This document shows positions 2,070 through 30,610 of a stretch of DNA of 30,610 nucleotides, piece by piece (the stretch's first letter is position 1; every line of letters begins with the position of its first letter). Source of the stretch: Bacteroidota bacterium (GTDB lineage Bacteria; Bacteroidota; Bacteroidia; Cytophagales; ES-bin-26); the NCBI GenBank assembly GCA_040385915.1, contig JAZKGK010000153.1, positions 12,466 through 43,075 on the forward strand, in the 5' to 3' direction. The notes under the pieces are model-generated. The model had not been told where the DNA came from, did not search any database, and saw only the letters and a list, made by a program, of their open reading frames with translations. The position numbers were made by a program, and so were the translations under genes.

Positions 2070-2900
2070 CTATTTCACCTTCAACGTAATTTCGTTTTCT
2101 TTCCTCAGGAAGTCGGTTTGCTCCGACAATCCTGCGGGTGCGGAGGCAAGGATGGCATGGTCGGGTACTACCTTTACTGGTGTAATGCAAGCTTTGTTTT
2201 TCTCACGGAAGGGCACGTTATAACTCAGGTTATAGGCTGAAATGAGCGACCAGCGCGCTTTATTCGACAAGTTGGCCTCCGACATGTGCAGCAGATTGCT
2301 ATGGAAGAAAAGGGTATCACCGGGTTTTAATTCCACATATATTTTCTCACAATGCTTCAATGCTTCTTCAACAAAGGGCATATCGGCACCTTGCTGCTCA
2401 CCAGCGAACAGGTGTTCAAAACGCCCCATTTTGTGCGACCCCTTCAGTACTTGCAAACAGCCGTTTTGCTTGGTTGCATCCGTTAAAGCCACCATCACGC
2501 TGATCATTGCCTCAGGATACAGGAAGCCGTTCTTGTACCAATAACCATAATCCTGGTGCCATTCCCAAGCGCCGCCCACCTGTGGCTCCTTCTGCATCAG
2601 TTTGGAGTGAAAATGGCAGACCTCGCCTTCGCCCAGCAAGTGTTGAACCGCGTTTACCAGGCGTTCACTGCGGATCAGCAGACCATATGTATCGTCGCCC
2701 GGCGTGAACCATAGCGTCAGTTTCGTTCGTTTGCCGGCTTGATCGCTCAAATCAAACGCGTGGCTACGCATAGCCGAATCTCCTGTAGCCAACCCGTAGA
2801 GCAAATCAACTTCTTTCGGAAGTAAAAAACCTTGGACAATCAAGTAACCATCCCGGTCGTATTGTAATTTTTGTTCGGATGTTAATGTGGTGTAAGCCAT
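2070..2900 (-). CDS. Phytanoyl-CoA dioxygenase (PhyH) family Fe(II)/2-oxoglutarate-dependent oxygenase
   Basis: The 'WHQDYGYW' segment and a downstream His (in [11 protein letters not shown]) resemble the PhyH facial-triad region. Start taken at the internal Met '[20 protein letters not shown]', which is the typical PhyH N-terminus. The ORF-track start at 2942 adds 14 residues with no homology feel. Confidence 0.7.
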
Positions 2901-3056
2901 GATCGTACTATTTTGAGTAGACCCAAATCTGGTAATTATCACCTACTTTAACTACCACTATTTTGCCAAAAATATATACTTTTTTGACTCAATATGGAAA
3001 GAGAGGGAGAATAATGGTAAGTTTAGGTTATAAAAGTCATTTTTATACAGAGCAAC

Positions 3057-3902
3057 GTGAAACCGCTGATTCAAAAATTACCGCTTTCTGAGCAGTCGTC
3101 CTTTGTGGCTGATACGTTTATAACACCCGCTTTTGAAACGCCCTGGCATTACCACGAGGAATACGAATTAGTCTTGATTCTCCAAAGCCATGGGAAGCGT
3201 TTCGTGGGCAATCACGTATCCGACTATGCCGTGGGCGAACTTGATTTTCTGGGCTCTAACCTACCGCATTGGTACCGGAAAGAAGACACGCAAGCGACAG
3301 GAGGCTCACTGGTCATTCACTTCCGGAAAGAATTTCTAGGAAAGGATTTTTTGGCGATTCCTGAAATGCAAAAAATTGGCTTTCTGTTCGAAAAGGCGCG
3401 GATGGGGCTGCACATAGGCGGGGAAACCCGGAGGGTCATGTGCGAGAAAATGCACGAAATGCTGGAATTAACAGGCATGAATCGGCTGACCGGATTGTTG
3501 GCTATCCTCGCCATCCTGGCCGACTCCGACGAATACGAATTGCTTTCTGGCCCCGAGATGAACGAACAAAACCCCCGCGACAGCGATCGGCTGAACAAGG
3601 TGTTCGACTACGTGATGGAGCATTTCAAGGAAGAAATCCGGGTGGAGGAGGTCGCCGACCTGGCGATGATGAGTTATTCGGGCTTCTGCCGGTATTTTAA
3701 GAATCGGACGAAAAAAAACTTTTCCCATTTTGTCAACGAAATCAGGATTGGTTACGCCTGTAAACGCCTGATGGAAAGAGACAGCAGGGTGACGAGCATT
3801 TGTTACGAAAGTGGTTTTCATAACCTAGCCAACTTTTCCAAACAATTCAAAAACATTGTCAAATGTACACCCCGGCAGTTTCAATCGCGACAGAATCGAT
3901 AA
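3057..3902 (+). CDS. AraC family transcriptional regulator (cupin-like N-terminal domain plus C-terminal AraC-type HTH)
   Basis: The C-terminal 100 aa carry the two-HTH AraC signature (…EEVADLAMMSYSGFCRYFKNRTKKNFSHFVNEIRIGYACKRL…GFHNLANFSKQFKNIVKCTPRQF). The N-terminal region has a His-rich cupin-like 'PWHYHEEYELVLI'. Apparent GTG start at 3057. It is divergent from the PhyH/Gfo/TIM operon. Confidence 0.85.
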   Translation: MKPLIQKLPLSEQSSFVADTFITPAFETPWHYHEEYELVLILQSHGKRFVGNHVSDYAVGELDFLGSNLPHWYRKEDTQATGGSLVIHFRKEFLGKDFLAIPEMQKIGFLFEKARMGLHIGGETRRVMCEKMHEMLELTGMNRLTGLLAILAILADSDEYELLSGPEMNEQNPRDSDRLNKVFDYVMEHFKEEIRVEEVADLAMMSYSGFCRYFKNRTKKNFSHFVNEIRIGYACKRLMERDSRVTSICYESGFHNLANFSKQFKNIVKCTPRQFQSRQNR

Positions 3903-3996
3903 AGAGGAGTAGGTAAATTATGTCAGACTAGGATTGATAGGATGAAAGGATTATAGGAGGCTGGTTGTTTGCGTTGAGCCCATTTGTCTGCCATCG

Positions 3997-4109
3997 CTGA
4001 GCGGACGCTCAGACCCACTTTTAGTCAAGCGACCGCTTGGCTTCCCTATACATTATTCCGTAAACGCCAATCAACCATCCTACCTTCGCCTCACTTATCT
4101 GCTCCACTG
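3997..4109 (+). repeat. Copy A of a ~112-bp repeat element (palindrome-1 ctgagcg-ga-cgctcag, palindrome-2 caagcg-ac-cgcttg, then a ~60-bp tail)
   Basis: Aligns at ~85% identity over ~112 bp with 5642..5752 (same orientation), and in inverted orientation with 30461..30549. Confidence 0.8.
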
Positions 4110-4121
4110 ATTCACGCTTAA

Positions 4122-4598
4122 TCATTTTACTTTTTTATTTGGAAGATAATCTTTATAAACCGACATTCCATTGCGAGGATTCCAGCCAAGAAGATAGATT
4201 TCACCAGAAGTTTGATTCTGAACAAAAGCTTTTTGAGATAGACTATCAATTGCAGTCAATTCTGATACAAATTTGCAATTCTTATTCTGTAGAATAGCGG
4301 CAATTTTTATGCTATCAAGCTGCTTGTGGTCGATAGAATATATCGCTCTAATAAAAACAGAATTATCATTGGCTATATGCTCATAGTGAACAAAGGTGTG
4401 ACCTTCCTGCTTGATATAGTAATTAGGCCATTTAAGCAATACGAAATCGTCATCCAGCAGTTTTTCACCAGAAAGACAGGAAACACTATTGTAGAAACCA
4501 AAACTGTCTTTGGAACAACATACATCACTAAATTGGCAAGAGAAAACTATCAATAGTAAGAAAATGCAAATGGAGAATAAATTAAGGGTTTTAGACAT
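4122..4598 (-). CDS. Hypothetical lipoprotein (ORFan, AT-rich)
   Basis: 158-aa ORF. N-terminal signal peptide with a lipobox-like LIVFSC. GC content is far below the surrounding genes. No recognisable domain. Confidence 0.5.
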   Translation of the reverse strand: MSKTLNLFSICIFLLLIVFSCQFSDVCCSKDSFGFYNSVSCLSGEKLLDDDFVLLKWPNYYIKQEGHTFVHYEHIANDNSVFIRAIYSIDHKQLDSIKIAAILQNKNCKFVSELTAIDSLSQKAFVQNQTSGEIYLLGWNPRNGMSVYKDYLPNKKVK

Positions 4599-4661
4599 TA
4601 GTGTTTGATAAAATCTGGTTTTGGTTCTTTATAATGCGAATTTATTAAAGCTCACCTCTTA

Positions 4662-4688
4662 GTCTTAGCGGACGCTCAATGCTGTCAA
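4662..4688 (+). repeat. Solo terminal-repeat-like copy (gtcttagcggacgctcaatgctgtcaa) of the MITE-like element's inverted repeat
   Basis: 27/27 match to the reverse complement of the right TIR at 5625..5659. Contains the agcg-ga-cgct palindrome core. Confidence 0.7.
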
Positions 4689-4730
4689 ATGCCAAAAGAA
4701 GGGCTGGGACTAGAAGGAGAAAGCAACTAA

Positions 4731-5414
4731 TTAGTCCCATTGAAGGAGAGTAAGTTTTAGGGGTATAGCTTCGGAAGTCTTAAGCTTAATAGCCCGAACC
4801 GACATAAGTCTTAGGTCAATAGACAATGTATCCAAATCCTCTGAATCATAAATTTGTTCACTTACATAAAGTTTTTGATTTTTATTATCTAAGATGTAGT
4901 ATTCTATGTATCCTACAGGTGAGGAATAATAGCTAAATATTGACAAGCCATTATGATTGTATTTATAAATGAAATCATCTTCATTTATACTATCAATAGC
5001 TTTCACTTTCCCTATACTATCACCATTACAAATAATTAAGCAATTTGTAATTGATGAATCTTTATATTTTATATTTTCATCATAGTCAATTTTAATCAAT
5101 AAAAGATGATTGTCTTGCGCAAAATAGTCCTTGTAAAACAAAAGCTTATTTATTGGAAATTTAGAATTAATAATACCCGTCTTTAATAACACCTGATAAG
5201 CCCATAATAAACTATCCTTATTTAGTGCCATTACAGTATTAGTTTTCTTCGGTTGTTCTATCTGGGCTGTTTTTTCAACTCTCTGAATAGAGATTATCTC
5301 CGACTTTTGCATCTTTTTTGTTGTATCAGAACTACAATCAAAAGCCAATAAGATTAAGAAAAAAAGCATAATCTTCACGATTAAATTTTGCAAGATTTTA
5401 GTTAGCATCGTCAT
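4731..5414 (-). CDS. Hypothetical lipoprotein (ORFan, very AT-rich)
   Basis: 227-aa ORF. Hydrophobic N-terminus ending in the lipobox-like LLAFDCSS. About 30% GC. Asn/Lys/Ile/Tyr-rich. No recognisable domain. Start could be an internal Met (5366). Confidence 0.5.
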   Translation of the reverse strand: MTMLTKILQNLIVKIMLFFLILLAFDCSSDTTKKMQKSEIISIQRVEKTAQIEQPKKTNTVMALNKDSLLWAYQVLLKTGIINSKFPINKLLFYKDYFAQDNHLLLIKIDYDENIKYKDSSITNCLIICNGDSIGKVKAIDSINEDDFIYKYNHNGLSIFSYYSSPVGYIEYYILDNKNQKLYVSEQIYDSEDLDTLSIDLRLMSVRAIKLKTSEAIPLKLTLLQWD

Positions 5415-5448
5415 TTTTATTAATGCAAAAGTCTCAGATCAATTCTGC

Positions 5449-5659
5449 CTGGTCTTAGCGTCCGCTCAATGCTGTCAACTTAAGGATAAAAAGGTGTTTT
5501 CTTCTTCTCTGTTGTCATCCTGAGCGGAGCGAAGGACCTTGTTATGGAGTTACCACTAAACAAATAATAAGGTCCTTCGCTCCGCTCAGGATGACAATCG
5601 CCTGTATAAAGTGGTGGCCATGTTCCTTAAGTTGACAGCATTGAGCGTCCGCTAAGACC
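5449..5659. mobile_element. MITE-like nested palindromic element: 35-bp terminal inverted repeats (5451..5485 and 5625..5659; 33/35 complementary) around a 28-bp perfect inner stem (5513..5540 / 5569..5596) with a 28-nt loop
   Basis: Direct inspection. The left TIR ggtcttagcgtccgctcaatgctgtcaacttaagg is the reverse complement of the right TIR except for the central dinucleotide. The inner IR tgtcatcctgagcggagcgaaggacctt / aaggtccttcgctccgctcaggatgaca is perfect. No ORF inside. Confidence 0.65.
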
Positions 5660-5752
5660 CACCCTTAGCCAAGCGTCCGCTTGGATTGCTTTACATTATC
5701 CAGTAAACGCCAATCAACCATGCTACCCTCGCCTCACTCATCTGCTCACTGC
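5642..5752 (+). repeat. Copy B of the ~112-bp repeat element (direct repeat of 3997..4109); its 5' end coincides with the right TIR of the MITE-like element
   Basis: tgagcgtccgctaagacccacccttagccaagcgtccgcttgg…ccagtaaacgccaatcaaccatgctaccctcgcctcactcatctgctcactg aligns with copy A at ~85% identity. Confidence 0.8.
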
Positions 5753-5994
5753 TAGGATTAGTGGGAGGTAATTTGAGTACCACACCCTTTCTAATAATGG
5801 CCTAGCGTATAAACAATAGCACCTTATTTCATTGGTATGTCTACGCCACAAAAATAGCTTTAACATTTGGAAAAAAACCGCATTTTATATTGTTATTTAG
5901 GGTTTCAGGGTATGAATCTTGCGGCGATATATTTTACTTTAATAGCTCTTTCAGGGGTTGGCAGGAGTAGAGACATGCAATACTTTTTCAATTG

Positions 5995-8900
5995 ATGAAA
6001 TCACTGGTACTATTCTCTTTGTGTTTGTCCATGCTTGCCTTGAAGTTGTATGGACAGACGGATAATGTGCATTTTGAACAACTTTCTACCAAGGAGGGGT
6101 TGTCCCATAGTATCGTTACTTGCACCTTGCAGGACAAGGAGGGCTTTATGTGGATTGGTACCCAGGATGGGCTCAACCGCTTTGACGGCTACAACTTTTT
6201 GCTCTTCGAGCACGACCCTCACGACAATACCAGCATCAGCAATAACGCTATCACGTGTCTCTACGAAGATCTAGAAGGACACCTGTGGATTGGTACCGAA
6301 AGTGGATTAAATAAATTTGATAAAAAAACCAATACCTTCCAGGTCTATCGACACGACCCTGCCAACCCTCAGTCCATTAGCCACGATCTGATAAGAACCA
6401 TTTATGCAGACCGAGCCAATATTTTATGGATTGGCAATTATGCGGGGCTGAATAAATTCAATAAGCAAACCAATACGTGTATCCTCTACGAGCACGCTCC
6501 CCAACATCCCAACAAATGGGCCTATAATCAGATTAATAAAATTTATGAAGACCGGCAAGGAAATTTTTGGTTGGGCACTAACCAAGGCATCAGCCATTTT
6601 GATCGAAAATCATTTCAGTTTACCCGCTATACACTGCCAACCGTATCCAGCCATGACATTGACCCTCGACATGCAGTTAGAGATATGATGGAAGATCGAA
6701 CGGGCGTTTTGTGGGTAGCGACTACGGGTGATGGCTTGGCTGCATTTGATCGGAAGACCACCCAGTTTAAAGTCTATGTACCCCAACCCAAAGACTCCCA
6801 TAGTATAAGGAGCAGCCATATTATGGCGCTCTTGGAAGACTCTTTCGGCACGCTTTGGATAGGCACACAAGACAAAGGCTTATGTCGGTTTGACCGAAGC
6901 AAAAATACTTTCATCCATAATAAACCCAAGCCTGCTTTACTAAAGGCTACTGGCCGTGATGCGGTTACATCCATTTATGAAGACCGCTCCAAAGTATTAT
7001 GGGTAGGTACTTATGAAGCAGGCTTGAAGAAAATAGACTTGTTAAGAAAGCAGTTCGCCCATCTATTCCACGAGCCGGGAAATGACAATAGCATCCGCCA
7101 GAATGATGTAACGGCCTTGTATGAAGACCACCTGGGCGCTATTTGGATTGGCAATGGAGCAGGCTTAGATAAGTTGGATAGAAGCAACGGCCAATATATC
7201 CACTATGATTATCCCGCTCCGGCACCAAAAAATCTTTGGGAAAATAATACCACTTGTATCTACGAAGACCAGGCGGGGCATTTATGGATAGGACTGCTTG
7301 GTGGCGGCTTGAAAAAGTTCGACCGGGCAACGCACCGCTTTACCAGCTATTTACACAATCCGTCCGATTCTACTAGTTTACCGCACGCGCTTGTCAATAC
7401 GATTTATCAAGACAAACAAGGCACCCTTTGGTTGGGCACTCGTTTTGGCTTAGCCCGCTTGGAAGAAGGAAAAGGGAGATTCATCAATTATAAGCCTCCT
7501 TTTCTCAAAACCCAGGCATTTGAAATCACTAAAATCATAGAAGATTCCCAGGGCGAATTGTGGCTGGCTGCTGACCAATATGGCCTCATGAAATTCAACC
7601 CTTCAACCGGGCATTTTACCCCATATGCTTATAAGGAGGCCACCTTTCGCAGTAAGGCGACGGCGATTCACAACCTCTATGAAGATCGGACGGGGTTGTT
7701 GTGGTTATGTCTGCAAGAGGGTGGATTGCTGTGCCTGAATAGTAAAACGGGAAGCTGTCGGGCGATTATGGAACCCAAAGCCTTAACCAAGACAGTTATC
7801 AATGGCATTCTGGCAGATGGGAAAGGAGATTTATGGCTGAGCACCAGCAAAAATGGCTTGTATCACTTTAATCCGGCCACGGCAGCCCTAACCATCTACG
7901 ATGCCTTGGATGGCTTGCAGGCCAATGAGTTTAGTGGGGCTTGCTTCAAAAGCATCACTGGCGAGATGTACTTTGGAGGCAAAAATGGCTTCAATATTTT
8001 TCATCCCGATAGCATTCAGCACAATCCGTATGCGCCTCCGGTAGCCATTAGCAGCTTCAAGGTATTTGACAAGCCCCGCAACTTATCCCAAGTGATTACC
8101 CTGCCCTACTATGATAATTTCCTCTCCTTCGATTTTGTTGCCCTCAGCTATGCTTTCCCTTCCAAAAACCAATATGCGTATCAGCTCGAAGGCTTTGATC
8201 AAGAATGGGTGCAGGCAGGTACGCGCCGCTATGCTTCTTTTACCAATCTACAGCCTGGCGAGTATGTCTTCCGCGTAAAAGCGGCTAACCACGACGGGGC
8301 CTGGAATGAGAAGGGCGCTTCGGTCAAAATCATTATTTCTCCGCCCCTGTGGAGGACAGTCGGTGCCTATATACTGTATGTAGCTTTGTTTATTGCCATG
8401 ATGGATGGTTTACGTCGCTATATCATCAGTCAGGAACGGTTAAAGAATAATTTATTATTAAGTAGTTTGGAGTCGGAAAAATTGATGGAGCTAGACCAGT
8501 TGAAGTCTCGGTTTTTTACCAGCATTTCTCACGAACTTCGGACACCCTTAACGCTCATTTTAAGTCCGTTAGAAAAGAATCTTGCTTCAGCAGACAAAGG
8601 TCGTTTCTTTGAGCAGGAAGTCCGGTTAATGCACCGCAACGCCAAGCGATTGTTAGAACTGATTAACCAACTTTTAGATATTTCTAAGCTGGAAGCCAAA
8701 AAGATGCAGTGGGAGGCAACGCCAGGAGACATGATGCCTCTCCTGAAAGCAACCGTGTTTTCCTTCCTGTCTTTGGCTGAAAGCAAGCAAATCAAACTGA
8801 CGTTTGAAAGCAATCTGGAATCACTGATAACCTTGTTTGACAAAGACAAGTTGGAAAAGATTATAACCAATCTGCTGGCCAACGCTTTGAAGTTTACGCC

Positions 8901-10185: not shown

Positions 10186-11367
10186 ATGAATCAGTTGTCA
10201 AGTGTAAACTCCCTTTTTCGCTCTTTCTGGCAAGCCGGTTTTGAGTGTGCCGATCACCTCAATTACCATGGCGATCGAGTAGATTTACTGAAGGAAACCG
10301 CCCACGATGTCTTAATAGACGAAGATTATGCTGCCCTGGCTCCCTTCCAAATTCAAACCGTGCGCGAAGGCATTCGTTGGAATCGGGTAGAAAAGAAGCC
10401 CGGCCTCTATGATTGGACGGACGTAATAGAAAGAATAGAAGCGGGGCAAAGAAATGGCATTCAACAGCTTTGGGACATTTGTCACTTTGGTTTTCCCGAC
10501 GATTTGTCTCCTCTGCAGCCACACTTTTCTGAGCGCCTCGCTTCTGTAAGTCAGGCGTTTGTCCAGCTCTGGCATTCGCTTTCCGACGAGCCCCTGATTG
10601 TAACACCTATCAATGAAATAAGCTTTTTGTCGTGGCTGGGTGGAGAAGTGAAAGGCACGGTTCCTTATACCACCGAACGAGGATTTGAGCTCAAGTACGA
10701 ACTGGTAAAAGCGGCCATTGCATCCATAGAAGCCATTTGGCAGGTGGATCCCCAGGTAAGGATTTTGCATACCGAGCCCTTGGTCTATATTCTTCCGGTG
10801 GGTGACGAGCCAGAAATGATAGCACAAGCAGCGCAAGCCAATGAAATACAGTTTCAAACCCTGGATATGCTGTCAGGCAGCATGTGCCCAGAGCTAGGAG
10901 GGCGCAAGGAATACCTCGACCTGATTGGCCTGAACTACTATTTTGATAATCAATGGGAACACGAACGTACCCGCATTCGATGGGAAGAGCCCCGCGATCG
11001 GCGCTGGAAACCTTTATCGGTGCTTTTGCAGGAAGTATATAGCCGATATAACCGCCCGATGACTATTTCTGAAACCAGCCATTTGGGCGTTGGGCGCGGA
11101 GATTGGATTTTGGAAATAGCCAGGGAATGCTGCCAAGCAATCGAAAATGGAGTCGATCTCCAAGGCATTTGCCTATATCCTATCCTCGACCGACCCGATT
11201 GGGATAACCTTAACCTGTACCATAACTCCGGCCTGTGGGATTTGGAACACCATCCAAATAAGCCTCCCAAGCGGGTTTTGTGTGAACACTATGCCAAAGA
11301 TCTACTCAAGGCCCAGCAAACACTAAACACCCACATGCCCCTCAAAGCCAGGTGGATCTATGCTTGA
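10186..11367 (+). CDS. Glycoside hydrolase family 1-like (clan GH-A) protein, cytoplasmic; paralog a
   Basis: 393 aa. GH1-like signatures: acid/base-like 'IVTPINEISF' (T-x-NEP analogue), nucleophile-like 'MTISETSHLG' (ITENG analogue), and 'DICHFGFPDDL' resembling GH1 'HWDLPQ.L'. No signal peptide. About 55% identical to the next gene. Confidence 0.6.
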   Translation: MNQLSSVNSLFRSFWQAGFECADHLNYHGDRVDLLKETAHDVLIDEDYAALAPFQIQTVREGIRWNRVEKKPGLYDWTDVIERIEAGQRNGIQQLWDICHFGFPDDLSPLQPHFSERLASVSQAFVQLWHSLSDEPLIVTPINEISFLSWLGGEVKGTVPYTTERGFELKYELVKAAIASIEAIWQVDPQVRILHTEPLVYILPVGDEPEMIAQAAQANEIQFQTLDMLSGSMCPELGGRKEYLDLIGLNYYFDNQWEHERTRIRWEEPRDRRWKPLSVLLQEVYSRYNRPMTISETSHLGVGRGDWILEIARECCQAIENGVDLQGICLYPILDRPDWDNLNLYHNSGLWDLEHHPNKPPKRVLCEHYAKDLLKAQQTLNTHMPLKARWIYA

Positions 11368-11629
11368 CAGTCATCAACTATGTACTCTCATTTCGTATAG
11401 AATGGCTGACTGAGATAAATTCTTGTCATTTATGGGTAAATACTAAATAAACCATTTGCCAGCAAAACATGTCTGTCATAGCATAGTCGTTCTTTTTCAG
11501 TATTTTATTTAAACCAATTGAATTATATATACAAACATTTTAGACAAAACTTACTTGATCTAAACCAACCAAATAACGTCCGATTTAGAATGATCTATAA
11601 GGGTATTTTTGTTGCACTATTTTTATCAC

Positions 11630-12826
11630 ATGAACACAGAAACTATTTTTAAAACGAATCCTTTGTTTCGTTCTTTTTGGCAGGCTGGTTTTGAGTGCGC
11701 CGATCATTTAAACTGCCACGGTGATCGGGTTAATATTTTGAAAGAAACATTTCACGATGTATTGGCCGAAGAGGATTATGCTCGTTTAATTCCACTAAAT
11801 CTGCTCACTGTTCGAGAGGGAATTTGCTGGAATACAGTAGAGAAAATACCAGGACAATACGATTGGAGCGAAGTAATTAACCGGATTGAGGCTGGCAAAG
11901 AAGCTGGTATACAACAAATCTGGGACATCTGTCATTTTGGGTATCCCGACGATTTATCGCCTTTCCAGCCCCGCTTTGCGGAACGCTTTGCCAATATATG
12001 CCGGGCTTTTGCCGTACTGTGGCGTTCGCTCAGTGATGAAACGCTGATTGTGACCCCCATTAATGAAATCAGCTTTATTTCCTGGCTCGGCGGTGAGATC
12101 AAGCAGACTGTACCCTATACACAAGGCCTGGGTTTTGAAGTTAAACGCGCGTTGGTTAAAGCCTGCATCGCGGGCATGGAAGCCATATGGGAAGTAGACC
12201 CGGAAGCCCGATTTTTGCATACCGAGCCCTTGATATACGTGTTGCCGGGCGACGACCAGCCCCAAACCCTGGCCGAAGTAGCAGCCATTAATGAAGACCG
12301 TTTCCAGGCGCTCGACATGCTAGCCGGAAAACTGCATCCAGAACTGGGCGGCAAGCCTGAATACCTGGATATTATTGGCCTCGATTTTTACTACAATAAT
12401 CAGTGGATACATTTTGGCTCGCGCGTGCAATGGGAAGCCCCCCAAGATCCCCGCTGGATACCGTTATCGCAGTTGCTGAAGCAAGTCTACGATCGGTATA
12501 ACCGTCCTTTGGTGTTGGCGGAAACCAGCCATCTGGGCATTGGCCGGGGAGAATGGGTGAGGGAAATAGGGCAGGAATGTCAGCAAGCCCTGGCAGAAGG
12601 AGTGGATTTATGGGGTGTTTGTCTGTATCCCATCATCGACCGTCCCGACTGGGATAACCTGAGCCACTACCACAATTCAGGTCTGTGGGACGTAATCCTT
12701 AAGCCTGGGTTTCCTTCGGAGCGGGTTTTATGTGAACATTACGCCAAAGATTTGCTGATGGCTCAACTCCAATTGAGTCCATACATACCTCATAGACAGT
12801 CTATTGAAGTTTCGAAATTAGCATAG
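11630..12826 (+). CDS. Glycoside hydrolase family 1-like (clan GH-A) protein, cytoplasmic; paralog b (tandem duplicate of 10186..11367)
   Basis: Same motif set as paralog a (FRSFWQAGFECADHLN, TPINEISF, LAETSHLG). Start taken at ATG 11630 (MNTETIF…), which aligns with the paralog-a N-terminus. The track's 11609 is a TTG. A TATTTTTG motif (11604..11611) just upstream resembles the Bacteroidetes -7 promoter element. Confidence 0.6.
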   Translation: MNTETIFKTNPLFRSFWQAGFECADHLNCHGDRVNILKETFHDVLAEEDYARLIPLNLLTVREGICWNTVEKIPGQYDWSEVINRIEAGKEAGIQQIWDICHFGYPDDLSPFQPRFAERFANICRAFAVLWRSLSDETLIVTPINEISFISWLGGEIKQTVPYTQGLGFEVKRALVKACIAGMEAIWEVDPEARFLHTEPLIYVLPGDDQPQTLAEVAAINEDRFQALDMLAGKLHPELGGKPEYLDIIGLDFYYNNQWIHFGSRVQWEAPQDPRWIPLSQLLKQVYDRYNRPLVLAETSHLGIGRGEWVREIGQECQQALAEGVDLWGVCLYPIIDRPDWDNLSHYHNSGLWDVILKPGFPSERVLCEHYAKDLLMAQLQLSPYIPHRQSIEVSKLA

Positions 12827-14288
12827 CAGCATCTCCCGCTATTGCTGGAATATCTATTGTCAGGGTTTCTGACGTGAGCAGTGAGAAAGGCTCCAAGGTA
12901 TGGCGTTCGCCGGTCAGCGTATTCCAGACCACCACCGAGTACAGTCCCGCTTCCATGGCTGAAACCCTGATTTTTGCCTTTTGGGGCAATAGGTTAGGGT
13001 GAAGCAAGCCTTCGGCAGTAAGGTCTTTTGTTTGAAGAAACCAAAGAATGACCTGCTTTTCGTTTCCGCAAGCAAATCCCTTAAAAAAGCTAGGAGAAAT
13101 TTTCACCTGCGCATCCAGATTTGTTCTTGAAAAAAATTGCCAATCCACGTCTTGAATAAATGCAGCCAATACCTTTTGGGCTTGACGCATACCCTGCGTC
13201 AGTACGTGTGGATGGCGATAAGGCCAGCGAAAGCCTCCACCCGCGCCACCTGCGGCCAGATGCGCCCATTGCATATGTCGGAAATACTGATCGTCAAAAC
13301 ACGCTGGCAAAGTGCCCTGTTTTCGTCGGAAACTGCGGTCGGGGCCGTGCTCGCTGTCCAGAAATGGCCGGCCGTCCCGAATGTGGCGCAAGGCCTCTCG
13401 CGTGAGTACGCCCGTTTGCAAAGCTGGCTTTACCGTATTGGAAGGCAGCCGAATGGAGGCATCATAGAAGTGGACACTGGCAAAGTCCAGGAGTGGATGC
13501 CGAAAAATGACTTCGCTTAGGTCGGGGTGCTTCTTTAATACGGGACTGTATACCGATACCGTTTGCAAGTGCGCCCGTCCGTGGATATCCATTTCCAGTT
13601 CGCGCAGATAGCGGCTCATCTCGCTCACCCAGGCATGCAAAGTCTGGCTATCGTGACCCGCATGTGCCGGGTCGATTTCATTCCACAAGTCCCAGGCAAA
13701 AAGCGCCCCGCTACTGCCCCAGCGCCGCGTGGCAAAAGCAAGCCGGGCTTTGATCGCCGATAAAGTTGCCGGACAAGTAAGCCATTGGGAAGGACGTTGG
13801 CAAAAACCGCCATTCGCCCGGTTGTATGGATGTTTAGCCCAGCGTTTCCGCATCCAGAAGGTGTCATACGGCGTAAGCAGGATACGCAAGCCGTGCTTGG
13901 CACAAAGCGCGAATACATCGTCCCACAGCATAATAATATTCGGCTGAAAAACACCTGCCGGACGTTCTAAATAGCGGTTTTCGGTATGGCAGTACTCCAA
14001 CATCAGCCGTAAACAAGTAACGCCGTGAGAGACCAGCGTTGAAAAATACTGATCGACACTGTTGACATCTTTCCGGCGAAAAAGCCCCGCCAAGTCCGGC
14101 CAGGTAATGGCATCGTTCTGGCCAATGGGCGTCCAATTCTCTCCTTGGTCCGTCAAAAAGTAAGGCGCATGCGGGGCTACCTGTATCCAGGGCAAGGAAA
14201 AGGGATGAATAGGTACTGCTTGACTCTTGGATTGATTGGAAGGAAATAGGCGATTAGGGAACGTTACTCTATCACTGCTGTCTGCCAT
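12801..14288 (-). CDS. Glycoside hydrolase family 5-like (clan GH-A) hydrolase, cytoplasmic
   Basis: 'AWDLWNEID' matches the GH5 acid/base NEP strand and 'FLDSEHGP' is a candidate nucleophile strand. About 495 aa, no signal peptide. ATG start at 14288 (MADSSDRV) is preferred over the TTG at 14318. The 3' end overlaps the convergent paralog-b gene by 26 bp. Confidence 0.55.
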   Translation of the reverse strand: MADSSDRVTFPNRLFPSNQSKSQAVPIHPFSLPWIQVAPHAPYFLTDQGENWTPIGQNDAITWPDLAGLFRRKDVNSVDQYFSTLVSHGVTCLRLMLEYCHTENRYLERPAGVFQPNIIMLWDDVFALCAKHGLRILLTPYDTFWMRKRWAKHPYNRANGGFCQRPSQWLTCPATLSAIKARLAFATRRWGSSGALFAWDLWNEIDPAHAGHDSQTLHAWVSEMSRYLRELEMDIHGRAHLQTVSVYSPVLKKHPDLSEVIFRHPLLDFASVHFYDASIRLPSNTVKPALQTGVLTREALRHIRDGRPFLDSEHGPDRSFRRKQGTLPACFDDQYFRHMQWAHLAAGGAGGGFRWPYRHPHVLTQGMRQAQKVLAAFIQDVDWQFFSRTNLDAQVKISPSFFKGFACGNEKQVILWFLQTKDLTAEGLLHPNLLPQKAKIRVSAMEAGLYSVVVWNTLTGERHTLEPFSLLTSETLTIDIPAIAGDAAMLISKLQ

Positions 14289-14315
14289 GGCTCGTTCGAT
14301 TGCCGGATTGTTAAA

Positions 14316-14376
14316 CAAAAGAAAGGAAAAAGCCCCAATACTACCTTACAGTAGGGAGGCTTTTTCCTTTCTTTTG
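14316..14376 (-). promoter_or_regulatory. Hairpin between the third GH1-like gene and the GH5-like gene (19-bp perfect stem, 23-nt loop)
   Basis: caaaagaaaggaaaaagcc (14316..14334) pairs with ggctttttcctttcttttg (14358..14376). Lies 28 bp upstream of the preferred GH5 start codon and between two co-directional genes. Confidence 0.4.
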
Positions 14377-14386
14377 TCAAATTTGC

Positions 14387-15613
14387 TTATACGAACGTGG
14401 GTTTTGGCAGATGATTAATCGAAAATACATGGCCAGCCTCTTTCATTTCAGCCGTATATTGAGCTATAATGTTGTGATAAGCTTCTCCTACCGGTCTTAT
14501 TTTACGGTCAATGTCGTATAGTCCAAACGCATTGACGTTTCCATTGTCTTCCCGCAAAGCCGTATCCCAATCTATCTGGTCAATAAGGCTGTACCAAGTG
14601 AAACCAACCACGGGTATACCCTCTTGTTTGAGCCGCAACAATTCATTCCATTGTTGATGTAGCCAAGCCACCGCTTTTTCAGCACCAATATTGGTTTCCG
14701 TATACATCACCGGAACGCGGTAACGATCGTAGTATTGGCGCGCTACCTGGTAAAATCCCAGGCCGTTAAAAAAGTCGCTGGTGCGTCCGTCTGGGTGCAC
14801 CATGTGTTCATTATGGGCATAGTAATCGGCTCCAATGACCCATTTACCCCGGCAAGGATGGTTACGAAACCAAGCATATTCATCTTTGGTCATTCCGTGG
14901 TGCAGCAAATAATCCTGCATCAGTTGACTGGAAGGATAACCGCAGGTCAGATCATAGGGCAAGAACCGCTTTTGGTTGAGGAAATCGGCTTTTTCATGGC
15001 AGGCGTCAGTCTCGGTATGGAAATATTCCCAGCCTTCACTTTGGATAAATACGGCCTCTGGTTGTATACTCAAAATGGCGTCCATCGCCAGCAAATTGGC
15101 TTTGCACATGTGCTTTAGGGCTGTAACAAAGCCATGTTCATCGGCAAGTCGCTCGTTCCACCAGCCGAACTGTGCCGAAAAAATGGCACAAATATTTATT
15201 TCATTCACAGGTGTATACAAGCGTAAATCTGGGAATCGTTTGGCAAAGGCCAGTGCATATTCCGCGAAATGAGCCGGGAAGTCGGGGTTCTGAAAATTGC
15301 CTAACCAATCAGGGACACCGAAATGGCATAAGTCGACAATGGGCGTAATTCCCATGGCTTTCATGGCAGCAAAAGTTTCATCAGTAAAGTGCCAGTCATA
15401 TTGGCCAGGTGCTAAGTGGGTAGCATAATAAGGCGGCCCGTAGCGTAAAAATTGCATCCCACTTTCCCGAACCAAACGAAAGTCTTCGCGCCAGCGCTGA
15501 TAATGCCCAGCCTTTTCCATTTCGTCTACGCGCTTGGTGGTACCATTCGGCAGCACAATGGTAGGGTAACTATTTTCAATGCCAGTGGCAAACATAAAAG
15601 GTAATTGATTCAT
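14387..15613 (-). CDS. Glycoside hydrolase family 1-like (clan GH-A) protein, cytoplasmic; divergent third paralog
   Basis: 408 aa. N-terminal 'FMFATGIENSYP'. 'GITPIVDLCHFGVPDWL' resembles GH1 'GIEPfVTLyHWDlPqaL'. Acid/base-like 'YTPVNEIN' and nucleophile-like 'MYTETNIG' (ITENG-like). No signal peptide. Confidence 0.6.
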   Translation of the reverse strand: MNQLPFMFATGIENSYPTIVLPNGTTKRVDEMEKAGHYQRWREDFRLVRESGMQFLRYGPPYYATHLAPGQYDWHFTDETFAAMKAMGITPIVDLCHFGVPDWLGNFQNPDFPAHFAEYALAFAKRFPDLRLYTPVNEINICAIFSAQFGWWNERLADEHGFVTALKHMCKANLLAMDAILSIQPEAVFIQSEGWEYFHTETDACHEKADFLNQKRFLPYDLTCGYPSSQLMQDYLLHHGMTKDEYAWFRNHPCRGKWVIGADYYAHNEHMVHPDGRTSDFFNGLGFYQVARQYYDRYRVPVMYTETNIGAEKAVAWLHQQWNELLRLKQEGIPVVGFTWYSLIDQIDWDTALREDNGNVNAFGLYDIDRKIRPVGEAYHNIIAQYTAEMKEAGHVFSINHLPKPTFV

Positions 15614-16473: not shown

Positions 16474-16497
16474 AGTAAAAGACAGATGTGTAAATTA

Positions 16498-16549
16498 GTA
16501 GAGGTGCAGATGAGTAGCTAAAAGCCTATCTACTCATCTGCACCTCTAC
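16498..16549 (-). terminator. 20-bp perfect inverted repeat with 12-nt loop between ilvC and cvpA (candidate terminator or partial terminator)
   Basis: gtagaggtgcagatgagtag … ctactcatctgcacctctac, located 15 bp past the ilvC stop. The U-tract is weak, so function is uncertain. Confidence 0.45.
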
Positions 16550-16563
16550 ACATCTACTTATTG

Positions 16564-21475: not shown

Positions 21476-21513
21476 ATACCAAAAGAGCCTTTCTCTTAGG
21501 GAGACAGGCTCTT
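21476..21513 (-). terminator. Attenuator terminator hairpin in the ilv leader (minus strand: AAGAGCCUgucucccuaagagaaAGGCUCUUUUGG)
   Basis: 8-bp GC-rich stem, extendable through an inner ucuc/gaga pairing, followed by a UUUU tract. Located 47 nt upstream of the ilvD ATG and 28 nt downstream of the leader ORF stop. Confidence 0.55.
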
Positions 21514-21541
21514 AATAAATTATGGTGAAGCCTTCCCCCTG

Positions 21542-21607
21542 TCAGGTAATCAGGAAAATGACCACAATGAGCAAAAGCTCAAAACTATGGAAAGGCGTAA
21601 ACTTCAT
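21542..21607 (-). CDS. Candidate ilv leader peptide (21 aa: MKFTPFHSFELLLIVVIFLIT)
   Basis: Small ORF on the ilv strand. Its run LLLIVVIFLI is 9 of 10 Leu/Ile/Val codons. It is followed by the terminator hairpin. An upstream AGGCU (in GGAAGGCUUC) can pair with the terminator's left arm AGCCU, a possible antiterminator alternative. Confidence 0.5.
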   Translation of the reverse strand: MKFTPFHSFELLLIVVIFLIT

Positions 21608-21960
21608 TAGTTAGGTATTTGTGCAAAGATTCGGCATATTTTTCAGAATAGCAATATAAATATTGAAAATTAATGATTGTGTAAAATTAAAAAGATGTCA
21701 TTGGCACTATTGTCCAATCTTTTCGTTTAAAATTTAAAAATTTATTCACACATATTTGTGAAAATTAAACTTTCCAGATCTTATATTAGCTGCTTGTCTT
21801 ACTTGCTTTTTCTCTGCTGCTCATCCATTCCAGCCCTATCATCCCCTGGTTTTGCTATTTAATTTAGCTTGAATCTTACCGACTATCAAAAGTTGAATTT
21901 TCACTCCTTGTAATCTACCCCAAAATTGCTAGTATTGAACATTGTTTCAAAACAAGATCC

Positions 21961-22629
21961 ATGAAAGAATTACTCGATTGGGCATTTATTTCCATTAATT
22001 TTCCGCTCACCCTCCTATTACTGGTTATTCTGTTGTACTGGCTTACCGTAATTGTCGGCCTGATCGATTTCAGCTTTCTTCATTTCGACATAGATGCGGA
22101 CATTCATATAGATGGTCATGCGCATGTGCATCTGGAGAAAAACATCCATGTAGATGTAAAAGCGAAACAAAGTCTCTTCACTTCTCTGCTTAATTTTTTC
22201 AATTTGGGAAAAGTGCCTTTCATGATTTTCCTTAGCTTCATGGTTTTATTTATGTGGAGCGGTAGTATTCTAGGGAATTATTACCTCCATAATCAATCGG
22301 TCGGTTTTGCCCTGTTGCTGCTCATTCCCAACTTTATTAGCAGCCTGTTTCTGACCAAGTTTCTTACGTTTCCCCTCATTCACGTTTTTTCTGATGGCAA
22401 AAATGAATTTGAAGCCAATAGTGATTTGATTGGCAAGCCTTGTACACTCCTGCTCTCGGCCACGGAACAGAAAGTGGGTCAGGCAGAAGTGCTATCCGCT
22501 ACGGGTGCGCCGCTGTTACTGACAGTGAAAACCACCACCGGACACCAACTCAAACGAGGCGAAAGAGGGCTGGTGATTGATTATGACCCAGTCACGCACA
22601 CCTACTTAATAGAACCATTTGACCAATAA
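21961..22629 (+). CDS. NfeD/YqiJ-like membrane protein (N-terminal TM helices plus C-terminal NfeD-type OB-fold)
   Basis: 222 aa with three or four hydrophobic segments. The C-terminus 'GKPCTLLLSATEQKVGQAEVLSATGAPLLLTVKTTTGHQLKRGERGLVIDYDP' has the NfeD short-form beta-barrel pattern. It is immediately upstream of a flotillin gene, as in yqiJ-yqiK and nfeD-floT pairs. A His-rich stretch (HIDGHAHVHLEKNIHVD) is present. Confidence 0.65.
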   Translation: MKELLDWAFISINFPLTLLLLVILLYWLTVIVGLIDFSFLHFDIDADIHIDGHAHVHLEKNIHVDVKAKQSLFTSLLNFFNLGKVPFMIFLSFMVLFMWSGSILGNYYLHNQSVGFALLLLIPNFISSLFLTKFLTFPLIHVFSDGKNEFEANSDLIGKPCTLLLSATEQKVGQAEVLSATGAPLLLTVKTTTGHQLKRGERGLVIDYDPVTHTYLIEPFDQ

Positions 22630-22630
22630 A

Positions 22631-22687
22631 GTAAAGAGTTGAAAGTTGAGAGTAAAAAGCTTGAACTCTCAACTTTCAACTCTTTAC
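22631..22687 (+). promoter_or_regulatory. 23-bp perfect hairpin (11-nt loop) between the nfeD-like and flotillin genes
   Basis: gtaaagagttgaaagttgagagt (22631..22653) pairs with actctcaactttcaactctttac (22665..22687). Starts 2 nt after the upstream stop codon and ends 20 nt before the flotillin ATG. Followed by the U-rich tttcaacttaattt. Confidence 0.6.
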
Positions 22688-22707
22688 TTTCAACTTAATT
22701 TAAAACT

Positions 22708-24861
22708 ATGTTTGCAAATTTTATCATTGTAGTGGGCGTTATCGCTGCCGTTTTTTTATTAGGTTTTGTAGCCCTTATTGTCAGTTGCTATAAAAAGGTA
22801 AGCCAGGGAAAGGCTTTGGTCCGCACCGGTTTTGGTGATCTCACCGTTCGCTTCAATGCCATGTTCGTTTTTCCGGTACTTCACCAGCTGGAAATTATGG
22901 ACATCTCGCTCAAAACAGTGGAAATCAGCCGGACAGGGAAAGATGGTCTGATCTGTAAAGACAATATGCGGGCGGATATTAAAGTCGCCTTTTTTGTGCG
23001 GGTAAACAAAACGAAGGAAGATGTCGAGAAAGTAGCCCAGGCCATTGGTTGTGCCCGCGCTTCCGATTACGCCTTGCTACGCGAACTGTTTGAAGCCAAG
23101 TTTTCGGAAGGCTTGAAAACCATCGGCAAGCGGTTTGACTTCGTAGACTTATACGATTCGCGCGAAAAATTTAAGCTGGAAATTTTGGAAGCCATTGGAC
23201 GCGACCTCAATGGCTATGTACTAGACGATTGTGCCATCGATTACTTGGAACAAACGCCCATCACTTTCCTGAGCGAAGATAATATCCTGGATTCGGAAGG
23301 TATCAAGAAGATTGCCGACCTTACTGCCCAACAGAAGATCAAAGCCAACCAAATCCGGCGCGACGAGCAAAAGGTGATTACCAAGCAAAATGTGGAAGCC
23401 CGCGAAGCCATTCTGGAACTGGAACGCCAATTAGCTGAAAAAGAAGAAAAGCAGAAACGCGAAGTATTAGCCATCAAGTCCCGCGAAGAAGCTGAAACGA
23501 AGAAGATTGCTTCAGAAGAATTTATGAAGTCGGAACAGGCGCGCATCCGCACGGAAGAAGAATTGCAGGTGGCTGAGCAAAACAAGCAGCGGCAGGTAAT
23601 TGTGGCGACCAAGGCCAAGGAAAAAACCGAAGCGGTGGAAATTGAACGCGTGCAAAAGGAGCGTCAGTTGGAGGTAAATGAGCGCGAACGAATCGTAGAA
23701 CTGGCCCGGATTGAGAAAGACAAAGCCATTGAAGAAGAGAAAAAGAATATCCAGGATGTAATTAGAGAACGGGTAATTGTAGAAAAGGCCGTAGTAGTTG
23801 AAGAAGAAAAGATAAAAGACACGCGTGCCTTTGCCCTGGCCGAACGCGACAAGGCGGTCGCAATTAAGAATGCAGAAAAAGTAGCGGAAGAAGCGCTGGT
23901 ACAGCAAATCAAATCAGCAGAAGCCAGCAAACGCTCGGCTGAACTATACGCAGAGCAGTCAATTATGCAAGCGAATGCCGACCGCCAGGTGGCGGAGAAA
24001 TCTTCGGAAGCCAAAAAGATTATGGCGGCAGCCAAGACAATCGAAGAAGCGGCTACTGGTCTGGCCGAAGCACAAGTGATGGAAGCCAAGTCGCTTGCCC
24101 ACGAAAAACAGGGAACGGTTGAAGCCAATATTATTGAGAAGAAGGCCATTGCCGATGCCAAGGGAATCGAAGCCAAAGCATCTGCCCTCGAAAAGCAGGG
24201 ATTGACCGAAGCCAATGTACTGGAACAAAAGGGAAGCGCCGAAGCAAGAGTCATTTCTATAAAGGCTGCTTCTGTAAAAGAGCAAGGTCTGGCTGAAGCA
24301 GATGTTATGGAGAAAAAGGGTCTGGCCGAAGCCTTGCGTATCGAAGCTAGAGCCAACGCCACCAAACAGCTCGATGGCGTAGGCAAAGAGCACGAAGAGT
24401 TCAAGCTCCGTCTACAACAAGTTACGGACATCGAACTGGCCAAAATTAATATCCAGAAAGACATTGCCAATGCCCAAGCCAGTGTAATTAGCGAAGCTCT
24501 CAAAGCCTCTAACATCAACATTGTGGGTGGCGAAACGATGTTCTACGAAAATATTATGGGAGCCATCACCAAGGGCAAATCCATTGATAGCTTCGTGAGC
24601 AATAGCCAGGTAATCCAAGGCGTACAACACGCCCTGATGAATGGTAACGGCACCGACGGCTCTATGGGTGATAAAATCAAAAGGCTGGTGAATCAATTCG
24701 GGATCTCTTCCGAAGACGTGAAGAACCTGACGATCTCTGCCCTGCTCTTCAAAATGCTCAACCTGACTTCAGACGATGGCGTAAAAGGCCTGTTGAATGA
24801 CTTGATGCATACAGCTAAGAAGGATGGCCTTGGAGATAAAAAGGCTGGGACGGTGTTGTAG
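22708..24861 (+). CDS. Flotillin-like SPFH/Band-7 domain protein (YqiK/FloT type) with long coiled-coil and C-terminal EA-type 11-residue repeats
   Basis: 717 aa. N-terminal TM helix (IIVVGVIAAVFLLGFVALIV) followed by an SPFH domain. A long Glu/Lys/Ala-rich coiled coil follows. Repeated units (…EKKGLAEA…/…EQKGSAEA…/…EKQGLTEA…) are typical of flotillin. Confidence 0.85.
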   Translation: MFANFIIVVGVIAAVFLLGFVALIVSCYKKVSQGKALVRTGFGDLTVRFNAMFVFPVLHQLEIMDISLKTVEISRTGKDGLICKDNMRADIKVAFFVRVNKTKEDVEKVAQAIGCARASDYALLRELFEAKFSEGLKTIGKRFDFVDLYDSREKFKLEILEAIGRDLNGYVLDDCAIDYLEQTPITFLSEDNILDSEGIKKIADLTAQQKIKANQIRRDEQKVITKQNVEAREAILELERQLAEKEEKQKREVLAIKSREEAETKKIASEEFMKSEQARIRTEEELQVAEQNKQRQVIVATKAKEKTEAVEIERVQKERQLEVNERERIVELARIEKDKAIEEEKKNIQDVIRERVIVEKAVVVEEEKIKDTRAFALAERDKAVAIKNAEKVAEEALVQQIKSAEASKRSAELYAEQSIMQANADRQVAEKSSEAKKIMAAAKTIEEAATGLAEAQVMEAKSLAHEKQGTVEANIIEKKAIADAKGIEAKASALEKQGLTEANVLEQKGSAEARVISIKAASVKEQGLAEADVMEKKGLAEALRIEARANATKQLDGVGKEHEEFKLRLQQVTDIELAKINIQKDIANAQASVISEALKASNINIVGGETMFYENIMGAITKGKSIDSFVSNSQVIQGVQHALMNGNGTDGSMGDKIKRLVNQFGISSEDVKNLTISALLFKMLNLTSDDGVKGLLNDLMHTAKKDGLGDKKAGTVL

Positions 24862-24884
24862 ATCCATTCGTCAATCGTATTTAC

Positions 24885-24964
24885 GTAGGGGCAGGCAGAC
24901 GGCGATCCGGCTTGCCCCTGCCCTAAACAACCTGCATAAGGGCAGGGGCAAGCCCTGCCCCTAC
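24885..24964. repeat. GC-rich nested palindromic element between the flotillin and giant-ATPase genes
   Basis: ggcttgcccctgccct (24909..24924) pairs with agggcaggggcaagcc (24939..24954), a 16-bp perfect stem. An outer pair gtaggggcagg (24885..24895) / cctgcccctac (24954..24964) is also present. The motif gggcagggg occurs three times. Confidence 0.6.
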
Positions 24965-24972
24965 CTAATGTA

Positions 24973-30355: not shown

Positions 30356-30360
30356 AGTCC

Positions 30361-30560: not shown

Positions 30561-30610
30561 TTACCGAAACGAAAAACTGGCCACAGGGCTACAGTTGTCT
30601 TTTACATATG

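Follow-up and report, generated by a model that had tools for sequence, protein, structure and literature searches.

A compositionally foreign islet with a putative orphan immunity gene at a repeat-rich intergenic site of a Cytophagales-like bacterium

We analysed a 30,610-nt stretch of DNA (hereafter the window) that covers positions 12,466 to 43,075 of contig JAZKGK010000153.1 (43,075 nt) in the assembly GCA_040385915.1, a metagenome-assembled genome (MAG) of a Bacteroidota bacterium; this portion of only ~30 kb is the part of the genome examined here. The subject is a 1.3-kb islet of low GC content (4110-5440; coordinates are those of the window throughout), which carries two small open reading frames (ORFs), ORF1 and ORF2, between two copies of a hairpin-rich repeat. 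The islet probably consists of two lipoprotein genes that were acquired horizontally and are located at an insertion-prone intergenic site, and ORF2 is probably an orphan immunity gene, because it has no toxin partner within 30 kb, unlike its toxin-linked homologues in other bacteria.

The islet is compositionally foreign. The sharp drop in GC content that had been noted in a preliminary description of the window was confirmed: the islet has a GC content of 29-33%, and the sliding GC fraction is 0.25-0.37 across approximately 4050-5550 versus 0.45-0.55 on either side. The 16 other genes of the window that served as the reference set have a GC content of 48.1 ± 2.7% and a GC content at third codon positions (GC3) of 52.7 ± 5.0% (mean ± sd). 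Compared with these genes, both ORFs are low in GC and in GC3, with values of 33.3% (z = -5.6) and 30.2% (z = -4.5) for ORF1 and 29.3% (z = -7.1) and 27.2% (z = -5.1) for ORF2. The islet is also the longest and lowest of the low-GC stretches in the window, the others being short and mostly intergenic. One of these other stretches (21476-22350) extends ~390 nt into a gene for a YqiJ-like protein.

ORF1 and ORF2 are real genes by ordinary criteria, because both have long open frames in DNA that is rich in stop codons, show an excess of GC at first codon positions (GC1 is higher than GC2 and GC3) and are annotated by NCBI, and because ORF2 has homologues and a confidently predicted fold. By a rough estimate from base composition, the chance of 158 stop-free codons, the length of ORF1, is a few in a million. 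As first described, both are small lipoprotein-type genes on the minus strand without recognisable domains, and neither has a match in Pfam or NCBIfam. The hydrophobic leader of ORF1 ends in a Cys (...LIVFSC, with the lipobox-like VFSC). That of ORF2 ends in ...LLAFDC, an atypical lipobox, the Cys column of which is common to its homologues; alternative starts of ORF2 lie at 5408 and 5414. The two genes had both been regarded as ORFans, which holds for ORF1 but not for ORF2. When 5.8 billion proteins were searched with a word index, ORF1 itself was the sole hit, a comparison of ORF1 with the profile of the ORF2 family gave no match, and PADLOC gave nothing for it. Its single-sequence AlphaFold2 (AF2) model is poor and uninformative (pLDDT 49). 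ORF1 is thus a lipoprotein gene specific to its lineage, which resembles ORF2 in composition and orientation and may be a second gene of the immunity type.

An exhaustive HMMER scan of 1.84 billion representative proteins identified 30 distant homologues of ORF2 (E 1e-13 to 1e-3, ~28% identity), nearly all of which are 180-230 amino acids (aa) long and have a lipoprotein-type leader. In the family alignment, one Tyr is invariant, D, S and G residues are near-invariant, and the motifs DDF and FEYYSSPVGY ((F/Y)SSPVGY) stand out; the core motifs are retained in ORF2. None of the 27 aligned members is covered by a Pfam family, and no NCBIfam immunity family matched. The AF2 model of ORF2 built from the family alignment has a pLDDT of 86.7 (>95 from residue 51), and the predicted fold consists of one helix packed against an 11-strand beta structure, for which a Foldseek search of the PDB gave no significant match. 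ORF2 belongs to a real but undescribed lipoprotein family, the members of which have ~200 aa.

The gene neighbourhoods of the homologues point to the function of this family. Loci with a toxin gene were found in Flagellimonas algicola, in an Aquimarina sp., on two Logan contigs and on two JGI contigs, which together represent four independent lineages. In all four of the independent lineages with enough upstream sequence, a protein that ends in an M23 (LytM-type) peptidoglycan endopeptidase module is encoded 1-29 nt upstream of the lipoprotein gene on the same strand. The upstream protein of F. algicola (locus L005; 29-nt gap) is 1812 aa long and contains Ig_7, DUF6443 and Peptidase_M23; that of Aquimarina (L006; 24-nt gap) is 1436 aa long and contains DUF6443, a sub-threshold RHS_repeat (E 4e-4) and Peptidase_M23. 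On the Logan contigs (L007 and L008; 28-nt gap), the upstream protein has at least 734 aa with Peptidase_M23 at its end, and on the JGI contigs (L010 and L012; 1-nt gap), the upstream ORF contains the M23 motifs HAGHD and HLHFE. In an alignment, the four M23 modules constitute a single subfamily (IRxNRASNLGxG...HAGxD...YAHL...GDxEHLHFE). The module starts right after the Rhs core boundary (YYPFGL...DPxGE) in three loci, at the position that polymorphic toxins use for their exchangeable toxin module (Zhang et al. 2012, PMC3482391). The divergence of the toxins and that of the lipoproteins are correlated (75% identity for the toxins versus 48% identity for the lipoproteins in one comparison, and 34-46% versus 18-23% in the others). 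Furthermore, the lipoprotein genes of L005, L006, L007, L010 and L012, from Flavobacteriaceae and metagenomes, are 6-14 GC points below their surroundings, so that low GC content is a trait of the family. At L010, a 309-aa ORF adjoins the toxin-lipoprotein pair downstream. In two genomes, a homologue (P0139) occurs as a stand-alone gene.

These loci resemble those of Rhs and other polymorphic toxins in that an Rhs core and a C-terminal toxin module are directly followed by a small gene on the same strand, and the predicted periplasmic location of the lipoprotein matches a cell-wall target. They differ in that the lipoprotein family lies outside the immunity families of Pfam and NCBIfam. M23-containing peptidoglycan hydrolases are also found among the effectors of type VI secretion systems (T6SSs), e.g. 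in the Tpe groups of Acinetobacter (PMC6833914). A position directly downstream of a toxin C-terminal module and co-oriented with it, which is the usual mark of an immunity gene, was found for the homologues of ORF2 but not for ORF2 itself. A degraded toxin locus at the islet was considered and rejected, as tblastn detected no remnant of Rhs or M23 sequences in the window. On the basis of gene order at the homologous loci, we infer that ORF2 is most likely an orphan immunity gene. Its product would be exported, lipid-anchored and facing the periplasm, where it would bind and block the incoming M23 toxin domain of a competing Bacteroidota cell; carrying no toxin of its own, ORF2 would protect against the toxin of other cells.

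Several points weigh against this reading. The immunity assignment derives from gene order in four lineages, the members of which are only 20-30% identical to ORF2. The lipobox of ORF2 has a D at position -1, its structural matches are weak, and ORF1 is without supporting evidence for any function. A gene for an M23 Rhs toxin elsewhere in the MAG would make ORF2 a displaced immunity gene and not an orphan. In addition, both low-GC loci of the window lie next to repeats, an arrangement that would follow from a causal link between repeats and foreign genes just as from a shared preference for permissive sites. It is also conceivable, though rather unlikely, that ORF1 and ORF2 are ordinary lineage-specific lipoprotein genes with no role in interbacterial conflict, and that the repeats accumulated around them since insertions there are harmless. 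That ORF1 has no homologue, that ORF2 is so distant from the toxin-linked members, that one homologue also occurs as a stand-alone gene and that solved structures contain no significant match to ORF2 would all be expected in this case. However, the M23 toxin directly in front of the lipoprotein gene in every lineage with enough upstream sequence, the conservation of the core motifs of the family in ORF2 and the extreme low GC content, which is typical of toxin/immunity modules, argue for an immunity gene.

The islet is located between an AraC-type gene and a gene for a hybrid sensor. The closest homologues of the AraC-type protein are 77% identical (on a Logan contig), followed by those of Adhaeribacter, Botryobacter and Pontibacter (73-71%). 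This makes the source organism Cytophagales/Hymenobacteraceae-like, and no close relative of it has been sequenced. The gene block AP_endonuc_2-GFO-PhyH-AraC is kept in the nearest relatives (AraC homologues 74-75% identical), but the genes downstream of AraC differ and are unrelated, so that these relatives have no orthologous junction; the islet lies exactly at a break of synteny. Upstream of ORF2, only repeats are present before the divergent hybrid sensor gene (at 5992). A Logan contig from run SRR26324626 is 100% identical to 4080-4995 of the window. A second Logan contig from the same run (L020) is 97.9% identical at the DNA level over 2425-3959 and ends 30 nt before the repeat copy on the AraC side of the islet, which points to a second strain in the sample. 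Pfam scans covered the 19 ORFs of the window taken as genes, after exclusion of overlapping ORFs of at least 100 aa, and detected no integrase, recombinase or transposase domain among them. An Rfam search gave no match to known RNA families. Promoter and terminator scans were uninformative, the Bacteroidota -7 promoter motif not being enriched.

Table 1. Coordinates of the islet genes, the repeat copies and related features of the window
Feature	Coordinates	Strand	Remarks
AraC-type gene	3057-3902		MES2732418.1
Copy A	3987 to ~4110	plus	Left part of the element: terminal palindrome CTGAGCGGACGCTCAG, second palindrome CAAGCGACCGCTTG, internal tail
ORF1	4122-4598	minus	158 aa; hypothetical protein V4714_11740, MES2732419.1
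Half T-type palindrome	4662-4675		GTCTTAGCGGACGC; target half-site of a second IS4-type insertion
Truncated IS4-type end	4676-4688	plus	First 13 nt, TCAATGCTGTCAA, identical to the ends of the MITE and of the Chondrinema IS; between ORF1 and ORF2
ORF2	4731-5414	minus	227 aa; annotated start M16 at 5369 (212 aa); V4714_11745, MES2732420.1
Copy B, left terminus	5444-5466	plus	TCTGCCTGGTCTT + AGCGTCCGCT; ends with copy 1 of the target duplication (10 nt, 5457-5466)
MITE	5467-5643		177 nt; IS4-family-derived; no coding capacity
Copy B, remainder	5644-5778	plus	Copy 2 of the target duplication (5644-5653), rest of the palindrome, second palindrome CCAAGCGTCCGCTTGG, tail
96-aa ORF	30065-30355	plus	TTG start; two predicted hydrophobic helices (membrane-like); directly abuts copy C
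Copy C	30355-30562	minus	Complete type-2 element, ~205 nt; DNA fold z = -8.3
IS, insertion sequence; MITE, miniature inverted-repeat transposable element.

The islet had been described as bracketed by direct repeats of ~112 bp. The two repeats, here called copies A and B (Table 1), are indeed present and are 85.9% identical over 99 nt (4006-4104 and 5650-5747; one gap, E 1e-18), but their limits are wider, and the unit is only the left part of an element of ~205 nt. When some sequence beyond the ends is included, the identity is 78% over 141 alignment columns; the two values together give a divergence of 14-22%. Copy A is truncated on its right side beside the stop codon, i.e. the 3' end, of ORF1. 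Copy B is truncated on its right side inside the first right-hand hairpin (..GGTAATTTGAG), and a MITE is nested in its terminal palindrome. The complete form of the element is represented by copy C, which is located 25 kb away and is 64-70% identical to copies A or B; at each of its ends, it has two hairpins, formed by the terminal and the second palindrome, and the two ends are inverted relative to each other around ~85 nt. This third, inverted copy and the AT-rich small membrane ORF beside it had also been noted previously, and both were found again. The ORF (96 aa) has a GC content of 33.7% (z = -5.5) and a GC3 of 33.0%, has no family match in Pfam or NCBIfam, and is not present in the protein collection. 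In line with the association of repeats with AT-rich genes that had been proposed, both low-GC gene loci of the window adjoin repeat copies. The hairpin core AGCG[GT][AC]CGCT occurs 11 times in the window with up to one mismatch, versus 2.3 occurrences expected; ten of these sites are within the two repeat regions, where all of them are extragenic and form two clusters.

Among 185,579 species genomes, the pattern AGCGKMCGCTMAGACCCANNNTTA had one exact match, of the palindrome only, in the Cytophagales bacterium Alg240-R148, and the whole repeat unit had no match in JGI metagenomes. The element family of copies A, B and C is accordingly lineage-specific, whereas its type of palindrome is old and has a scattered distribution across Cytophagales. 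Short intergenic spacers of Persicobacter, one of them separating bioD from bioC, contain similar double hairpins (xAGCG..CGCTx and then GGTC..AGCG..GCT..GACC), at 1150-1202 of locus L018 (P. psychrovividus pPPrrn) and at 2480-2530 of locus L019. In Alg240-R148 (LS999832.1, locus L002), two inverted GGTCTTAGCGnnCGCTAAGACC palindromes (2447-2468 and 6831-6854), each with a second hairpin, bound a segment of 4.4 kb with small lipoprotein-like ORFs of 196, 131 and 290 aa. A membrane ORF of 182 aa and a remnant of an IS3-family transposase also lie in this segment. The possibility that the ends of the type-2 element are those of a known IS was also considered and rejected, because a plasmid search gave only weak matches to Persicobacter palindromes, with no transposase adjacent to them.

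The MITE inserted in copy B had been recognised as a MITE-like element at 5449-5659, but its true limits are 5467 and 5643. Its terminal inverted repeats are perfect (21 of 21 nt, TCAATGCTGTCAACTTAAGGA, at 5466-5486 and 5624-5644), the end base being ambiguous with the duplication, and it is flanked by the 10-nt direct repeat AGCGTCCGCT (5457-5466 and 5644-5653), which is a target-site duplication of 9-10 bp. Excision of 5467-5643 together with one AGCGTCCGCT restores the palindrome GGTCTTAGCGTCCGCTAAGACC, and the restored sequence TCTGCCTGGTCTTAGCGTCCGCTAAGACCCACCC lines up colinearly with copies C and A at their termini. The apparent inverted repeat of 36 nt thus includes, in its outer part, the split target palindrome and the target-site duplication. 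The hairpin 'loops' at the two MITE ends have the same sequence on one strand and are not inverted, because they are the target duplication. The interior of the MITE forms a hairpin with a 34-bp stem (5512-5597; DNA fold z = -18.6). The motif of this hairpin, TCATCCTGAGCGNAGCGAAGGA, is present without mismatch in 85 IMG/VR contigs, some of which contain it more than once; with 21 specified bases, far fewer than one match would be expected by chance, by a rough estimate. The interior is accordingly a copy of a very widespread palindrome.

In a search of a plasmid database with 5440-5790, a single place matched, namely the left end of an annotated IS4-family IS of Chondrinema litorale, which is similar to 5449-5503 of the window and encodes a DDE_Tnp_1 transposase of 434 aa. 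The ends of the MITE are identical to those of this IS at 18 of 19 positions. A second, identical copy of the IS at another site defines its true ends (TCAATGCCGTCAACTTAAG ... CTTAAGTTGACGGCATTGA) and a target duplication of 9 bp (CTTACACAC). The element in copy B therefore has both the inverted repeats of an autonomous IS and a target duplication of the length of the family, as expected for an IS4-derived MITE, but the only autonomous relative found comes from a different family (Chondrinema, Flammeovirgaceae). The first Chondrinema IS copy (plasmid NZ_CP111047.1, 4003-5428; locus L015) interrupts a 23-nt palindrome, AGTCTTAGTG-TCT-CACTAAGACT, exactly at its centre and duplicates GTGTCTCAC; this insertion into a palindrome makes its inverted repeats look like hairpin-containing repeats of 35 nt.

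A solo terminal inverted repeat that had been reported between ORF1 and ORF2 (4662-4688) is likewise present, but it consists of two parts, half of a target palindrome (14 nt) and a 13-nt IS4-type end. These 27 nt are the perfect reverse complement of 5632-5658, and they represent a second insertion of the same kind as the MITE that was truncated later. Since the two sequences enclose ORF2, they could also be regarded as belonging to a mobile insertion cassette (4676-5644), in which ORF2 would be a passenger between inverted IS4-type ends mobilised by an IS4-family transposase in trans. The perfection of the 27-nt inverted repeat and the homology of the ends to those of a real IS4-family IS are in line with such a cassette. 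However, the 9-mers that flank it differ at two positions (GCGGACGC versus GCGTCCGC), the right end belongs to the MITE, which has a perfect 10-nt duplication of its own, only the first 13 nt of the left end resemble the IS, and 14 of the 27 identical bases are those of the target palindrome and not of the element. We rejected the cassette because of its non-matching flanks and its left end truncated after 13 nt, and consider its existence extremely doubtful.

It had further been suggested that the islet is cargo mobilised by the repeat family. No positive evidence for this was obtained, as the sole element with a target duplication is the gene-less MITE of 177 nt. A more general form of this idea, which we regard as improbable, is that the repeats captured the islet: the palindromes would be recombination sites for circular low-GC cassettes, served by an enzyme in trans in the manner of an integron or of rAID-1, or a single crossover between a repeat on incoming DNA and one on the chromosome would have introduced the islet; in both cases, copies A and B would be left on its two sides. 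Several features are compatible with capture. Copies A and B are direct and bracket the islet; a hairpin-containing repeat lies between the genes, and the 27-nt sequence precedes the two start codons at distances of 37 and 63 nt; ORF1 and ORF2 are co-directional and low in GC content, like the genes of rAID-1 arrays; copy C, too, is directly adjacent to a low-GC ORF; and in Alg240-R148, inverted palindrome doublets bound a segment with three small lipoprotein-like ORFs. On the other hand, the ORFs scanned include no recombinase or transposase, the 27-nt repeat is explained by half a target palindrome and an IS4-type end, and copies A and B, being 14-22% diverged and independently truncated, do not have the appearance of hybrid sites. 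Moreover, only two cassettes are present, so that no statistics are possible, and the Alg240-R148 segment with its IS3 remnant looks like a generic variable region. An integron in the strict sense, which would have an intI integrase with attI and an attC site 3' of each cassette, was rejected, as no integrase was found among the scanned ORFs and ORF1 and ORF2 have no related sequences on their 3' sides. A bolder version, to which we would give very little credence, is that the Cytophagales double hairpins (GGTCTTAGCGnnCGCTAAGACC plus second palindrome) are recombination sites at which an enzyme acting in trans captures low-GC lipoprotein genes of the immunity type, so that an integron-like system would exist outside Bacteroidales, with the islet, the ORF beside copy C and the Alg240-R148 segment as three instances of it.

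The known system that the islet resembles most closely in its gene content is the recombinase-associated acquired interbacterial defence system rAID-1 of Bacteroidales (Ross et al. 2019, bioRxiv 10.1101/471110), which is defined by a XerD-like tyrosine recombinase 5' of the array, at least two co-directional genes with a GC content of ≤41%, and a conserved repetitive intergenic sequence. Like acquired interbacterial defence and rAID-1 clusters, the islet consists of toxin-less, co-directional genes of the putative immunity type that are low in GC content, evidently horizontally acquired and possibly comparable in their repetitive intergenic DNA. Both of its genes are on the minus strand and fall well within the GC limit of rAID-1. 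The 27-nt repeat is located upstream of both genes, which are the only two present; it resolves into a palindrome half and an IS4-type end. The islet is nevertheless not a member of rAID-1, since no XerD-like recombinase is present at its 5' end among the ORFs scanned. Further differences are that it has two genes only, that it comes from an environmental Cytophagales-like MAG and thus from another order, that its presumed toxin is an Rhs-borne M23 peptidase and not a T6SS effector of Bacteroidales, and that its intergenic repeats are explained as debris of IS/MITE and repetitive extragenic palindromic (REP)-like elements.

We rank the accumulation of foreign genes and small mobile elements at a permissive junction above a role of the repeats as the vehicle, because no recombinase or transposase was found in the scanned ORFs, the only unit with a target duplication is a gene-less MITE, the flanks of the candidate cassette do not match, copies A and B have diverged and are truncated at different points, and the islet coincides with a break of synteny. 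That the site has received transposition is evident from two insertions, of which one is flanked by a clean target duplication and the other is truncated. The repeats form two layers. The first layer consists of non-autonomous elements of ~205 nt with REP-like double hairpins, of which copies A and B are truncated and copy C is complete, and the second layer consists of derivatives of an IS4-family IS inserted into the terminal palindromes of the first. The repeats mark a permissive, insertion-prone site, and they could also have supplied homology for the integration or loss of the islet.

The palindromes of the window are comparable with REP sequences and bacterial interspersed mosaic elements in that they are short and extragenic and occur as single units, as doublets or as inverted doublets around a spacer, and in that an IS and its MITE are inserted in the palindrome centre in two genera. 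To our knowledge, no RAYT-type transposase has been associated with these double-hairpin palindromes. The ISs that target REP sequences are usually described as members of the IS3, IS110 and related families, whereas the inserting IS in this case belongs to the IS4 family; the NIME/dRS3 mosaics of Neisseria are comparable as insertion targets. The targeting of REP-type palindromes by ISs is itself a known phenomenon (Tobes & Pareja 2006, PMC1525189). Insertion of an IS4-family element into palindrome centres in two genera is a new piece, although a modest one. The repeat anatomy provides a worked example of an IS4-family MITE that targets the centres of REP-like palindromes in two genera, which is useful for annotation of these genomes, and it accounts for the build-up of repeats and foreign genes at intergenic sites of this kind. 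If our interpretation of ORF2 is correct, its family would be a new, unannotated immunity family for a class of cell-wall toxins in Bacteroidota, and orphan immunity genes, which are well documented in gut Bacteroidales, would occur also in environmental Cytophagales-like bacteria. The current understanding is not overturned by these results; the pieces that they would add, the lipoprotein family linked to Rhs-M23 toxins and the IS4 insertion in palindrome centres, are modest.

Several other features were observed in the window. Two tandem paralogous genes (10186-11367 and 11609-12826) encode proteins of 393 and 405 aa, and segments of their DNA are 74-79% identical at a spacing of 1450 nt; neither protein belongs to a Pfam family, the first having a very weak GH1-like match. 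Three co-directional genes at 21961-29943 encode a YqiJ_N-like membrane protein, a 717-aa protein without a family and a 1656-aa protein, in which the only recognisable part is the P-loop region of an AAA-type ATPase near residue 1290; PADLOC matched this three-gene set to no system. Three strong intergenic hairpins are unrelated to the repeat family: one at 22628-22690 with a perfect 26-nt stem (I7), one at 16490-16557 with a 31-nt stem containing CTCATCTGC (I6), and one at 14315-14377 (I8), which has a terminator-like 28-nt stem and occupies the spacer between the minus-strand genes 12801-14318 and 14387-15613.

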